DNA of 64,000 nucleotides from Promethearchaeota archaeon (GCA_019057795.1 JAHLWS010000079.1:1-64000); one strand, 5' to 3'. Counted from the stretch's first letter, positions 32,267 to 41,414 are shown. Numbers and translations: made by a program. The notes: generated by a model from the sequence alone, not told the origin.

Positions 32267-32332
32267 TTTTTTTCCTTCCTCTCTTTTCTTAGATTTTTCA
32301 TTAGTTAGTATATAAAATAACTTTTTTGTATA

Positions 32333-32389
32333 AAAAGATTTACAGTTGAATCGACTAAGAATTCTTGAAGTTTAAAGATTAAATTTTGA
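32333..32389 (-). repeat. Diverged partial copy of the 3' half of the putative ncRNA at 40113-40250
   Basis: ~35-bp identity AAAAAGATTTACAGTTGAATCGACTAAGAATTCTT continuing into four in-register TYAA-NNN heptamers. Confidence 0.85.
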
Positions 32390-38072: not shown

Positions 38073-38320
38073 GACTATGTATACAATATCTTAATTTGTA
38101 TATAAATATGATTAAAAATTAAAAGATAATTTGAGAAGATAATTAATGATTCATACTATTTGGGCATAATCTAATCAAATCAGAACTTTTCTATATAGGT
38201 TATAAAATCTAACTGGAAGGAGGGTATAGCTGGGAAGTTTATTTCTTACGTTTTTTGGAGCCTTTCTCGCACCAGGTCTAACACTGTATTTAAAAGCAAA
38301 ACTGATTTTTTCATAATAAA

Positions 38321-38479
38321 TCAGTAAAAGCAGTAAGTGGCAGATGGAATTTTAGAAATAACTATATCCTGATCTTCATATTTTTTTGCCAGTTCTAGAA
38401 TGACTTTCATTTCTAAATTTCTCTCAATGATTTCATCATCCTTCATTATAACCCATTCTCCACTTAATTCTTCTGTCAT
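38321..38479 (-). CDS. DUF5678-like small protein (52 aa), missing from the ORF track
   Basis: MTEELSGEWVIMKDDEIIERNLEMKVILELAKKYEDQDIVISKIPSATYCFY; GAGTGA SD. Confidence 0.65.
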   Translation of the reverse strand: MTEELSGEWVIMKDDEIIERNLEMKVILELAKKYEDQDIVISKIPSATYCFY

Positions 38480-38704
38480 ATTCACTCAACTTGGTTTTAT
38501 TTTATTATTGAAAAGAAGTTCCCAATATATTATTATAACAGAATTATTTAACTGATAAATATTTATATCTGAAGGCTTATAATATTTTCTGAATACTTAA
38601 AAATTCAAACCAACCATGATATTGGAGAGCTTCAACGCTCTATACACTATTGATATGAAATGATATCATTAAGTATTTATGCTAGCATTGCTATATTAAT
38701 CTTA

Positions 38705-39217
38705 ATGAAAATTTTCATATATGATGCTTGCTCTCTAATTTATTTAACGAAAATTAATGTTAAAGAAAAATTAGTACAATTAGGGTCAGTAAACGTTAGT
38801 CCGATAGTAAAGAGTGAATTAATTTCAGAAAAAGAAAAATATTCTGATGCTAAAGTGCTAAAAGAAAACTTAGATAAGAAAATAATTGAAGAAATGAAAC
38901 TTGAACGAGGAATGAGTATTTTTTCAAAAGATGTAGGTAAAGGAGAAAATGAATCTATACAATTATGCTTACAAATCGATGCAACTTTAGTAACAGATGA
39001 TCACCACGCAGTAAATATAGCCTCAAATGCAGGATTAAAACCCAAAACATCAGAAATAATCTTAATTGATTTACTGAAGGAAGGGATAATAAGCTATGAA
39101 GATTTCAAAAATTATTTTAGAGAACTAGCACAAATTAAGGTATTAAAACCCGAAATTGTGCTATTTTTTACTGATACAGCTATGGAAATAGTTAAAAATA
39201 ATTCAAAAGGAGGATAA
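38705..39217 (+). CDS. PIN-domain protein
   Basis: IYDACSLI, GKGENESI, VTDD; start ATG 38705. Confidence 0.88.
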   Translation: MKIFIYDACSLIYLTKINVKEKLVQLGSVNVSPIVKSELISEKEKYSDAKVLKENLDKKIIEEMKLERGMSIFSKDVGKGENESIQLCLQIDATLVTDDHHAVNIASNAGLKPKTSEIILIDLLKEGIISYEDFKNYFRELAQIKVLKPEIVLFFTDTAMEIVKNNSKGG

Positions 39218-39221
39218 AAAA

Positions 39222-39509
39222 ATGACAAAACAGATGAATTTAAGGTTAGATGAGGAATTAATCAAGGAATTTGAAGAACTCGCCGAAAACGAAAACCTTG
39301 ACCGCTCAGCACTAATAAAGAAAGTATTAATAGAAGGAATTCAACAAGAACGATTCAATTTTGCTATAAAAAAATATGTGCTGAAAGAAATTTCACTTGA
39401 GAGAGCAGCAGAAATCGCAAAAATATCTATTCATGAGTTAATTGCCAAAATTACCCAATTAGGAATTCCATCCAATTTGACTATAGAGGATTTCAAAAAA
39501 TTAATATAA
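39222..39509 (+). CDS. UPF0175/RHH antitoxin
   Basis: Directly downstream of the PIN gene, GGAGG SD. Confidence 0.9.
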   Translation: MTKQMNLRLDEELIKEFEELAENENLDRSALIKKVLIEGIQQERFNFAIKKYVLKEISLERAAEIAKISIHELIAKITQLGIPSNLTIEDFKKLI

Positions 39510-39584
39510 TTAAAGTAGTTGACTAAATACCAAGCTTTTCCAACCAATCATTCGAATCAATACTTGAGTGTATATGGTTGAGTT

Positions 39585-39702
39585 TGCTGGTATAATCGGA
39601 TGTGAATATATTTCAAATGTAAAAAAGTATGCTGAAGACAGTTGGATTTCAGCAGATGTTATCCAAGAATATATAGAAAAGGGTGAAAAATTTGGGAGAT
39701 AA
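39585..39702 (+). pseudogene. C-terminal remnant of a PIN gene
   Basis: EYISNVKKYAEDSWISADVIQEYIEKGEKFGR*, overlapping the next antitoxin start. Confidence 0.6.
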
Positions 39703-40009
39703 AATTTCAATTATATTACCAGATGATTTAAAAGAAGAGATTGACAAATTAAGAGATTTGATTCACGAAGATCAATCCTCATTCATAAGAAAATTATTAT
39801 GGAAAAGTGTTACCCATGAAAAGTTGGAAATTGCATTAAAACAATATCTTAGTAATAAGATATCTCTGGGGAGGGCAGCTGAAAATGCTGGAATATCCAT
39901 ATGGGAAATGCTAGATGAATTAAAAAGCAGAAATATAATGTTGAATTATAAGATTTCGGAAACAGAATTAGAAATTGAAAAAATATTAAAGAAATATAAA
40001 AAAATTTAG
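39692..40009 (+). CDS. UPF0175/RHH antitoxin
   Basis: ISIILPDDL...DQSSFIRKLL, ISLGRAAENAGISIWEM; TTG start after GGGTGA. Confidence 0.88.
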   Translation: MGDKISIILPDDLKEEIDKLRDLIHEDQSSFIRKLLWKSVTHEKLEIALKQYLSNKISLGRAAENAGISIWEMLDELKSRNIMLNYKISETELEIEKILKKYKKI

Positions 40010-40112
40010 ATTAAAAAATAGTACAACTCCATCTCGAGTCCATTATACTGAAACCTAATGGAATGCACATTCAAAAAAAATAGGGATTTATTAATTAAAT
40101 AGAAAAAGATTT

Positions 40113-40250
40113 ACAGTTGAATCGACTAAGAATTCTTAAAGCGTAAGGCTTAAATCTTGATTTTTAAACGTTAATTGCACATTAATGGCACAGCAATCAG
40201 CCAAGCTTTTCAACAAGGCGCTCGAAACCTTATGGAGTCGATACAACTGC
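40113..40250 (-). ncRNA. Predicted structured non-coding RNA downstream of the DIP1984-family gene
   Basis: Closing stem GCAGUUGUAUCGACU/AGUCGAUUCAACUGU (one U-U mismatch), internal hairpin AUAAGGU..GCCUUGU, six heptamers at 40133-40174, U-tract after the stem. Confidence 0.7.
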
Positions 40251-40311
40251 TCACCTAAAATAATGACAAATGAAATCGATTAATTAGATGAGTGTGATTA
40301 TATATTTGGGG

Positions 40312-40833
40312 TTATTCTATGAGTTGAGTGTTTGCATTGTGAATTTCTAAAATATTTTCGAGCTTCATTTTTCTCTCTTCTAACTTTTTTATAAGAAATT
40401 CTAATTGCAAATCTGTTAATTGCGCAACTTCTTTTTCCTCTTCTTCGGTGGTCGCAATTCGTCTACGTCTGAAACCAAATGAATCTCTTTCGTTAATAGT
40501 ATCGAGTTGTGCTAGTTCACTTCTAATATCATCAATTACTAGTTTTAATCTTGATAATGTCATAGTTCTATCGTCTACATCAATTTCAGTATGAATATTA
40601 GTTCTCATTATTCTTTCTCGTAAATTGCTAATTTTTTCGGCAATTACATTTATTTCTTCTGAAATATTCTCAAAGTTTACAAATTTGGATACTTCTTCGA
40701 CATTCTCTTTGAGATCCTCTAAAGTGCTATCTTTAGGAATAACTACAAAGAAGTTTTCTCTTCTCATTTTGATTTTTCTCTTAAGCTCGTTTTTCAATTG
40801 TTTAACTTGTTTTAACGCTCCTGAAATATTCAA
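40312..40833 (-). CDS. DIP1984/DUF6847-family helical protein
   Basis: MNISGAL.., IMRTN.HT..DDRTMTL and HNANTQLIE match the family pattern MKLAEAL..INRTN..T..TLT..NWTTELIE; TTG start 8 nt after GGAGGTGA. Confidence 0.8.
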   Translation of the reverse strand: MNISGALKQVKQLKNELKRKIKMRRENFFVVIPKDSTLEDLKENVEEVSKFVNFENISEEINVIAEKISNLRERIMRTNIHTEIDVDDRTMTLSRLKLVIDDIRSELAQLDTINERDSFGFRRRRIATTEEEEKEVAQLTDLQLEFLIKKLEERKMKLENILEIHNANTQLIE

Positions 40834-40877
40834 TATCTTTTTCACCTCCTTTTTTGATTTTTTATATATTTCATTTT

Positions 40878-40950
40878 TACTCCCGACATGATTCGAACAT
40901 GTGTTTCCGAGTCCAAGGCTCGGTGTAATTGGCCCCTATACTACGGGAGT
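40878..40950 (-). tRNA. tRNA-Gln(UUG), atypical (C33)
   Basis: Acceptor ACUCCCG/CGGGAGU plus A73, anticodon stem CCGAG/CUCGG with loop CCUUGGA, T arm ACAUG-UUCGAAU-CAUGU; no encoded CCA, no intron. Confidence 0.9.
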
Positions 40951-41414
40951 TTGTTTTCTAAATATAACTATCATATTAATTTTCGTAGGAACATATCCTA
41001 AATTCAAATATCCTATTGTTGGTTCATCTGATCCCTTTGAAAGCTAAATCCATATGAATGTATCTATTAAAAAGCTCTAATATTCTCGTTTAATACTTAC
41101 ATAGATGGTGATAACAAGTATTATATTAAACTCGTGGAATCTAAAAATGCAGAAAGCAAGATAAGAAAGATCATTGTTAAAAACGAGACGAGCTTATTGT
41201 ATTTAATGGATAGAGCATTCGCTAAAGTTAAACCCTCTCTGCAGGGTGGGGGGTTGCAAATACCATGTATCTCGGCTCATAATATTAATAAGATCAATTC
41301 GTTCGCATATAAATTTTTCGATCATAATTTCAATTTATGATCTAAATATTAATTTTTTTTGATAGTTGTATACAATCGTAACTTATTTAAGTATATTGTT
41401 GTATATATTAATTA

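Follow-up and report, generated by a model that had tools for sequence, protein, structure and literature searches.

On the minus strand of a 64,000-nt stretch of DNA from a Promethearchaeota archaeon (JAHLWS010000079.1; the whole stretch is called the window below), three elements follow one another: a gene for tRNA-Gln(UUG), a gene for a 173-amino-acid protein with the fold of the DIP1984/DUF6847 superfamily (40315-40833 up to the stop codon), and a structured non-coding RNA (~40292-40103) that lies between the end of this gene at 40312 and that of its convergent neighbor at 40009. The window is part of contig C79 of a 4.95-Mb metagenome-assembled genome of 30% G+C, and the protein has named relatives in Promethearchaeota (Loki-type Asgard archaea) and in marine-sediment metagenomes. 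On the best-supported reading, the protein and its RNA are a two-part accessory module with a patchy distribution, which here forms one transcription unit of Loki-type Asgard archaea together with the tRNA. A preliminary description, made from the sequence alone, had listed these elements, and we found all of them on the minus strand where it had placed them (Table 1). Our comparisons draw on 25 related loci from genome and metagenome collections and on further loci from whole-genome searches; L numbers designate related loci, G numbers genomes (G000 being the source genome), and C numbers contigs.

Table 1. Coordinates of the tRNA-protein-RNA unit and of an RNA-like block upstream of it, counted from the first letter of the window.
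Feature	Position	Strand	Basis
tRNA-Gln(UUG)	40878-40950	-	ARAGORN; Rfam tRNA RF00005, 54.8 bits
A-rich spacer with Shine-Dalgarno (SD) sequence AGGAGGTGA at 40842-40850	40834-40877	-	Sequence inspection
173-amino-acid gene	40312-40833	-	TTG start 40833, stop 40312-40314; relatives' alignment, fold model
Hairpin P-alpha	40250-40292	-	CUCAUCUAA (40292-40284) pairs with UUAGGUGAG (40258-40250), 25-nt loop
Stem-enclosed core, P1	40113-40249	-	40249-40237 with 40126-40114 (plus G40250-U40113); covariation
T-arm-like hairpin P2	40213-40233	-	AUAAGGU, loop UUCGAGC, GCCUUGU
In-phase heptamer array, nine 7-nt slots	40127-40189	-	Periodicity and homologue alignment
AAAUC and oligo-U tract	40097-40112	-	T-run at most 10 nt past the stem in 15 of 15 loci with sequence there
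RNA-like block 'RNA-U' (~97 nt)	41184-41279	-	Conservation; BRE/TATA (B recognition element and TATA box) 41307-41316; U-tract 41178-41182

The RNA tail spans ~190 nt, from just past the stop codon to an oligo-U tract, and is contiguous with the mRNA. Combining BLAST with a covariance model, we found the same RNA behind the gene in 22 related loci, which are all the loci that the covariance model detects. Nucleotide identity to the window copy is 65-81% for the RNA, 64-77% for the gene, and 48-56% for the flanks beyond the terminator; that is, the RNA is as conserved as the gene, and past the terminator identity falls to background. Scanned against 135 genomes of the family, the covariance model of the RNA matches only in G000, G185, G196 and G199, once in each, and these are exactly the genomes that have a close copy of the gene. 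The downstream RNA of the preliminary description is real, conserved and strand-specific, and it is tied to this gene family. The possibility that it is a miniature inverted-repeat transposable element (MITE) present at many unrelated loci is not borne out, as it occurs in single copy per genome and always where the gene is. Rfam, searched even at permissive thresholds, returned tRNA only, its best other entry having an E-value of 0.55, far below the cut-off of that family, and we found no paper or Rfam family that describes this pairing of a protein with an RNA.

The tail begins with P-alpha, a hairpin that starts 19 nt past the stop codon here and 5-26 nt past it across loci. Its 3' strand is the conserved 'UAGAUGAG' that precedes the closing stem, and its 5' strand reads CUCAUCU(AAA). 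It occurs in each of 15 loci as an uninterrupted run of 7-11 pairs, with a total of 13 G-U pairs; AAA/UUU becomes GUG/CAU in L021 and L004, and in L003 the same stem carries an 8-nt loop. The closed element and its U-tract had been recognized in the preliminary description, which placed the start of the RNA too late by omitting this hairpin (40292-40250). It had also given the closing stem, P1, 15 bp. The stem itself is real (40250-40237 with 40126-40113), whereas its outermost G-U pair competes with P-alpha. Across loci P1 measures 12-13 bp, and four of its pairs change on both sides; 91% of its cells are paired, as opposed to 26-49% when the partner strand is slid. Because G-U cells far outnumber A-C cells (36 versus 5), we place the RNA on the strand of the gene. 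Inside P1, the hairpin P2 resembles a tRNA T-arm, with a 6-7-bp stem that becomes CAGG/CCUG in L021 and a 7-nt loop. The CGAGC of this loop can pair with a downstream GCUUG (40201-40205; GCUUG/GCUCG across loci), which makes the two a candidate H-type pseudoknot. Past the stem, the U-tract (40103-40107) is presumed to be an archaeal terminator. The AUCU of the terminator region can also pair with AGGU (40256-40253) as an alternative to P-alpha, and this combination changes from AGAU/AUCU to AGGU/ACCU. We considered and rejected an excised or circular RNA flanked by bulge-helix-bulge motifs: the base of the RNA is either a symmetric 2x2 loop (GA/AA) or P-alpha stacked on P1, and minimal hBHBh' patterns occur at chance level (6-21 versus 6-15 in shuffled sequences), with none conserved at the RNA base.

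The 3' half of the core is occupied by an array of heptamers. Seven units are clear at 40175-40127 (AUUAACG, UUUAAAA, AUCAAGA, UUUAAGC, CUUACGC, UUUAAGA and AUUCUUA), so that the six heptamers noted earlier at 40174-40133 are real and belong to an array of 7-9 units rather than six. The period of 7 nt is significant in the single sequence: self-match at this distance is 0.50 in the repeat segment, which was chosen after it had been seen, compared to 0.29 in dinucleotide shuffles (z 3.8, 0 of 1000), and over the whole interior it still reaches a z of 2.5 (11 of 1000). In 16 homologous RNAs the units stand in register with the 3' arm and follow the consensus W-U-U-A-A-G-A (WUUAAGA), with U in 93% of units at position 2 and A in 92% at position 4. 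In L006 exactly 14 nt, the length of two units, have been lost. By sequence comparison, then, the array is a conserved modular feature of the RNA.

Repeats and inverted arms could in principle act as DNA: the heptamers as iterons, and the arms as a MITE, a site of recombination or an inverted repeat bound by a protein. The last 60 nt of the element do recur once, at 32329-32389 behind an unrelated gene, and the unit TAAGAATTCTTA is palindromic. However, the palindrome is lost in L021, L004, L003 and L017, no integrase lies nearby, and the U-tract is always present. Since the G-U pairs are specific to one strand and the element is single-copy in this genome and in each relative, a DNA-level element is nearly excluded. 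The recurring piece, the only other trace of the RNA in the source genome beside the one full copy, is a minus-strand fragment that matches the final 61 nt of the RNA at 89% identity and so includes the last heptamers, the 3' arm and the U-tract; it sits behind a HepT/MntA pair and has no 5' arm. We dropped the idea that this duplicate marks an integration site, as no integrase was found among the open reading frames (ORFs) scanned at 29.6-37.2 kb and 37.3-46.1 kb.

The association of gene and RNA extends beyond the reach of the covariance model. Behind the genes of distant Asgard homologues (E-values of 1e-29 to 1e-5) the RNA model has no match, and a different non-coding tract stands there. 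In seven of nine such loci, the strongest period-7 window of the ~3.4-kb locus falls at most 300 nt downstream of the gene, with units of the type (G/A)AUUAAA. Four of the nine also carry a canonical T-arm, GGUUCGAnUCC, ~90 nt past the stop codon (235 nt in L034), at the same place as P2. The RNAs that go with this protein family thus seem to be characterized by a T-arm together with a 7-nt array. In one lineage (L017, 2349-3030, and L024), an insertion of ~700 nt with two or three small SD-led ORFs separates the gene from the RNA, which is kept.

The protein starts at TTG 40833 and not at the upstream GVG-type GTG, as judged by alignment with 18 relatives. Direct scans of Pfam, NCBIfam and PHROGs gave no usable match (none at E at or below 0.01 in Pfam and NCBIfam), the protein itself does not score above the curated cut-offs of PF20935 and NF038048, and a profile search of PDB sequences returned nothing. 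An exhaustive phmmer search, by contrast, gathered 50 cluster representatives whose distant members, at 29-36% identity, belong to DUF6847/DIP1984; the relatives P0065, P0072, P0074, P0077 and P0081 (E-values of 4e-9 to 5e-4) match both PF20935 and NF038048. The AlphaFold model, at a mean predicted local distance difference test score (pLDDT) of 76.5, combines a beta hairpin with a bundle of four helices and leaves disordered a loop that contains RRRR-IATT-EEEE. Its match to 3KDQ is close by VIA-align (Z 14.2, root-mean-square deviation 3.4, 150 of 152 residues; the next entry scores 9.8) and by Foldseek (probability 1.00, TM 0.68/0.77). Through these transitive sequence matches and the fold, the protein is a member of the DIP1984/DUF6847 superfamily, and the family assignment made earlier holds at that level, with no direct match to a hidden Markov model.

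Two conserved basic patches stand out in the protein. One lies in the basic N-terminal helix and the other is the RRRR loop, disordered in the model; four residues, R23, K24, R28 and R127, are invariant, two more, R126 and R128, are almost invariant, and the basic patch FRRRRIATTEEEEKE named in the preliminary description is present. Modeled as a homodimer, the protein forms a symmetric pair with a score of 0.55, compared to 0.00 for the best control, with 20 of 30 solved same-chain pairs and one of 23 solved single chains reaching that mark. Between runs, the contacts agree to at least 91%, the partner has a pLDDT of at least 82, and the interface sets residues 31-38 of one copy against residues 136-143 of the other. 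This pass may reflect memory, because 3KDQ has already been solved. The predicted assembly is a symmetric homodimer, neither ring nor filament. Conserved sequence and models together make the protein look suited to RNA binding and to pairing.

The first element of the unit, tRNA-Gln(UUG), is the sole tRNA that ARAGORN and Rfam detect in the window. It has the cloverleaf, the conserved T-loop and G18G19 of a canonical tRNA, and in 15 homologous loci, where it stands 40-60 nt ahead of the gene, its acceptor, D and anticodon stems are kept by compensatory changes. Its anticodon loop, CCUUGGA, has C33 in place of U33, its first pair is A1-U72, and CCA is not encoded; C33 occurs in 13 of the 15 loci with the tRNA, and L012 and L019 have U33. 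None of 41 congeners has this tRNA, whereas the same method found a control, tRNA-Arg(UCU), in 39 of them. The tRNA-Gln is accessory and lies outside the core (housekeeping) set of the genus, and the earlier designation as a variant tRNA holds. The genome's housekeeping tRNA-Gln could not be identified among its 28 detectable tRNAs, many of which have introns.

Within the family, this tRNA-Gln occurs in 5 of 135 genomes: with the module in G000 and G196, and otherwise in three genomes of another genus, where C33 tRNA-Gln genes 76-84% identical to it stand inside arrays of 17-18 intron-less tRNA genes. These tightly packed arrays of Loki-family genomes (L071, G171:C308; L072, G173:C14; L073, G169:C22) are flanked by ordinary chromosomal genes (Snf7, DHQS-II, GH57), not viral ones; two of the three also carry a C33 tRNA-Tyr, and short SD-led ORF-like inserts lie between some of their tRNAs. 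A second tRNA-Gln(UUG) of the source genome (L052; contig C50:14243-14316) is of bacterial type, with U1-A72, G73 and an encoded CCA. It has 58% G+C on a 19-kb contig of 28.5% G+C, is absent from all 41 congeners, and could be contamination or a transferred gene. In L003, L004, L017 and L021 the RNA is kept and the tRNA is absent. Read across the loci, the tRNA is linked to the gene in one clade only, where it is a passenger or helper outside the core of the module, which removes it from the definition of the system that the preliminary description had given. We also dropped a pairing of the heptamers (UUAAG) with C33-G37 of the tRNA, possible with two wobbles, as the tRNA-less loci have the same heptamers.

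The tRNA and the T-arm of the tail invite the reading that the RNA is a tRNA-like decoy or substrate for tRNA machinery or nucleases, that the protein is its chaperone or a co-inherited neighbor, and that the C33 tRNA-Gln serves the same purpose here. The T-arm or T-loop is indeed kept, in forms between the degenerate UUCGAGC and the canonical GGUUCGAAUCC, the same unit includes an accessory tRNA whose anticodon loop is altered, and genes with PIN domains flank the module. On the other hand, the topology is not that of a tRNA, the T-arm coming after the 5' strand of the closing stem, the tail contains no mimic of a D-arm or anticodon arm and is matched neither by the Rfam tRNA model nor by ARAGORN, and the four loci named above keep the RNA without the tRNA. 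We consider such a decoy quite unlikely.

Between the tRNA and the gene, the SD sequence follows after 27 A-rich nt, in agreement with the ~30 nt given earlier, and the TTG start comes 8 nt further; no oligo-T run is present in this spacer. The TATA-like element described ahead of the tRNA is not conserved as such. Instead, a palindrome, TTAGGA-N5-TCCTA, and the block CATTTAGAAA are conserved there. The palindrome (40985-41002), 35-55 nt upstream of the tRNA and invariant in eight loci, could be an operator or a hairpin that belongs to the tRNA-gene unit. One metatranscriptome contig (run X20) covers 40519-40912 and thus extends from the 3' half of the tRNA across the spacer into the gene, two thirds of which it includes; this is a hint of co-transcription only, and contigs cannot prove transcription. 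We infer that the tRNA, the gene and the RNA tail are co-transcribed. The contig stops at 40912, tRNA position 38/39, with eight unmatched letters; an artefact of the assembly, a cut within the anticodon loop, or reverse transcriptase halting at a modified base 37 could explain this end.

These observations suggest the following as the most likely mechanism. From the promoter region, one transcript would deliver tRNA-Gln(UUG, C33), the message for the DIP1984-fold protein and the ~190-nt structured tail with its oligo-U end. In the tail, P-alpha stacks on P1, which encloses the T-arm-like hairpin, with its possible pseudoknot, and 7-9 in-phase WUUAAGA units. The homodimer, with its two conserved basic patches, would then bind the RNA encoded behind its own gene, the evenly spaced U2 and A4 of the heptamers would serve as repeated docking sites for several copies of the protein, and the outcome would be a defined ribonucleoprotein particle. 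Binding at the heptamers is suggested by the strict co-inheritance of protein and RNA, by the modular array, each unit of which has two fixed positions, and by the conserved basic patches. That the protein binds the tail RNA, and does so at the heptamers, is in our judgment about evenly poised between true and false.

Several points weigh against this interpretation. The covariation is modest and the set of sequences shallow; counts of loci overstate independence, because the loci are themselves related; and RNAalifold finds no consensus internal structure beyond the closing stem, P2 and P-alpha having been recognized by eye and script. The contig of run X20 does not reach the RNA tail, and runs X23 and X24 have no match, a gap in RNA-library contigs that says nothing about absence of a transcript. 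A symmetric dimer alone, as modeled, does not account for the reading of 7-9 units in a directional array. Finally, the RNA is contiguous with the mRNA, so that a purely cis action is possible. In that case, the tail would be a 3' untranslated element that controls mRNA stability, 3'-end formation, translation or termination and is not bound by the protein. The short distance of P-alpha from the stop codon, the lack of a conserved promoter visible in the spacer, and the U-tract that follows the closing stem in every locus all fit such an element. Yet an element for stability or termination needs neither a T-arm nor a 50-60-nt array in fixed register with conserved U2 and A4, it would not require conservation at the level of the coding sequence, and the deeply diverged homologues carry different RNAs with the same two features. 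We therefore regard an exclusively cis-acting tail as unlikely.

The surroundings of the unit raise another alternative. It sits in an island of small genes of toxin-antitoxin type, with three pairs of PIN-like and RHH/UPF0175 genes and one HepT/MntA pair, and the protein could be a growth inhibitor neutralized by the RNA in the manner of type III systems, possibly in response to infection. In keeping with this, the module is patchily distributed (16 of 400 genomes of the phylum, none of 41 congeners), and the PIN/UPF0175 and HepT/MntA cassettes around it vary between 98%-identical strains. The nearest shape cluster in the ESM atlas (TM 0.76) bears the automatic name Siphovirus Gp157, the family to which the GinA toxins belong (PMC3337138). 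We rejected this last link: it consists of a cluster name only, PF05565 has no match, and hhalign against orf157 of phage Sfi21 gives a probability of 0.1%. In that phage, the 'origin/PER' element lies 5 kb from orf157, and the gap before orf157 looks coding. A toxin-antitoxin or defense role is further opposed by repeats of 7 nt and not ~36 nt, by an RNA that lies downstream of the gene and not upstream behind a terminator, and by the lack of a nuclease like ToxN or AbiQ among the fold matches, of which 3KDQ is the best, although absence from such a list does not exclude the fold. Such a role is very unlikely in our assessment. The type III analogy drawn in the preliminary description breaks down over the size of the repeats and the order of gene and RNA and gains no support from the fold matches, and nothing that we found supports its link to tRNA damage or translation stress.

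Around the module, no neighboring gene is conserved across the related loci. A 2-kb PIN-like/UPF0175 cassette (38073-40087) lies 3' of the RNA here and is absent from L008 and L009, two strains with a 97%-identical protein; because such close strains lack it, we take the spot behind the RNA terminator to be an insertion hotspot. No relative turned up in the viral contigs searched, and the locus bears no sign of a virus. Further upstream lies the RNA-like block RNA-U, with a textbook BRE/TATA element of its own, CATAAAATTTATATA, ~25 nt ahead of it, a closing stem UGAGCCGAG/CUCGUCUCA, three small hairpins and no Rfam match. It occurs alone in two other genomes (G196:C39 and G181:C84) and may not be part of the system. 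A 68-amino-acid ORF on the plus strand (41134-41340) is probably its shadow.

If the particle exists as proposed, DIP1984/DUF6847, a family of solved structure, would gain a testable biochemical role through an obligatory RNA partner, and archaea would gain a new RNA family; to our knowledge, very few protein-partnered small RNAs are known in archaea besides guide RNAs. The module is small, with one protein and an RNA of ~190 nt, which makes direct rebuilding in vitro feasible. A wider proposal, tentative and rather improbable, is that DIP1984/DUF6847 is the protein half of a widespread class of ribonucleoproteins, in which dimers would line up side by side on a 7-nt array within a closed, T-arm-bearing RNA; in the Loki clade, the co-expressed C33 tRNA-Gln would escape an anticodon nuclease and so tie the particle to tRNA conflicts. 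Independently of the particle, the accessory C33 tRNA-Gln and its relatives in arrays prompt one to ask why extra, intron-less tRNAs whose anticodon loops are altered persist in Asgard archaea.

Compared to its own family (PF20935 and NF038048; 3KDQ from Corynebacterium diphtheriae), the protein of the window has the same four-helix bundle and beta hairpin, and differs by its inserted RRRR/EEEE loop and by matching neither family model directly. The family has no assigned function and, in the literature that we searched, no described RNA partner; the search returned no paper on DIP1984/DUF6847 and none that links septicolysin-named proteins to a structured RNA.

Four known systems share parts of this arrangement. 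In tobacco mosaic virus, the coat protein pairs with an origin-of-assembly RNA, the period of which is as long as the stretch of nucleotides that one subunit binds. There, as here, a four-helix-bundle protein is paired with a periodic RNA site; however, the proteins are not homologous, and the period is 3 nt there and 7 nt here. Type III toxin-antitoxin systems (ToxIN, CptIN and AbiEi-like RNA antitoxins) likewise combine a protein gene with a repetitive RNA in an accessory, island-like setting. Their ~34-36-nt repeats are processed by the toxin and lie upstream of it with a terminator in between, whereas the 7-nt units here lie downstream in a closed RNA, and the endoribonuclease fold of their toxins does not appear among the fold matches here. 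Ro60 (Rsr) and its Y RNAs, including the bacterial YrlA, also place a protein gene beside a small RNA with a long terminal stem and oligo-U, and YrlA contains a tRNA-like T-arm module. The tail of the window shares the closing stem, the oligo-U and the T-arm-like module. By contrast, our protein is a small four-helix bundle and not a TROVE/HEAT ring (no TROVE domain was found in the neighboring ORFs scanned at 29.6-46.1 kb), the heptamer array occurs only here, and Rfam gives no Y-RNA match. TRAP and HutP, finally, are oligomers that read short, evenly spaced RNA triplets. Their folds are unrelated to that of our protein, and their sites lie in 5' leaders and control attenuation; here the array is enclosed in an RNA behind the gene, with no ligand or attenuator evident. 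In both cases, only two or three positions of each unit in a periodic array are conserved, and the NAG sites of HutP are spaced, like the heptamers described here, 7 nt apart.

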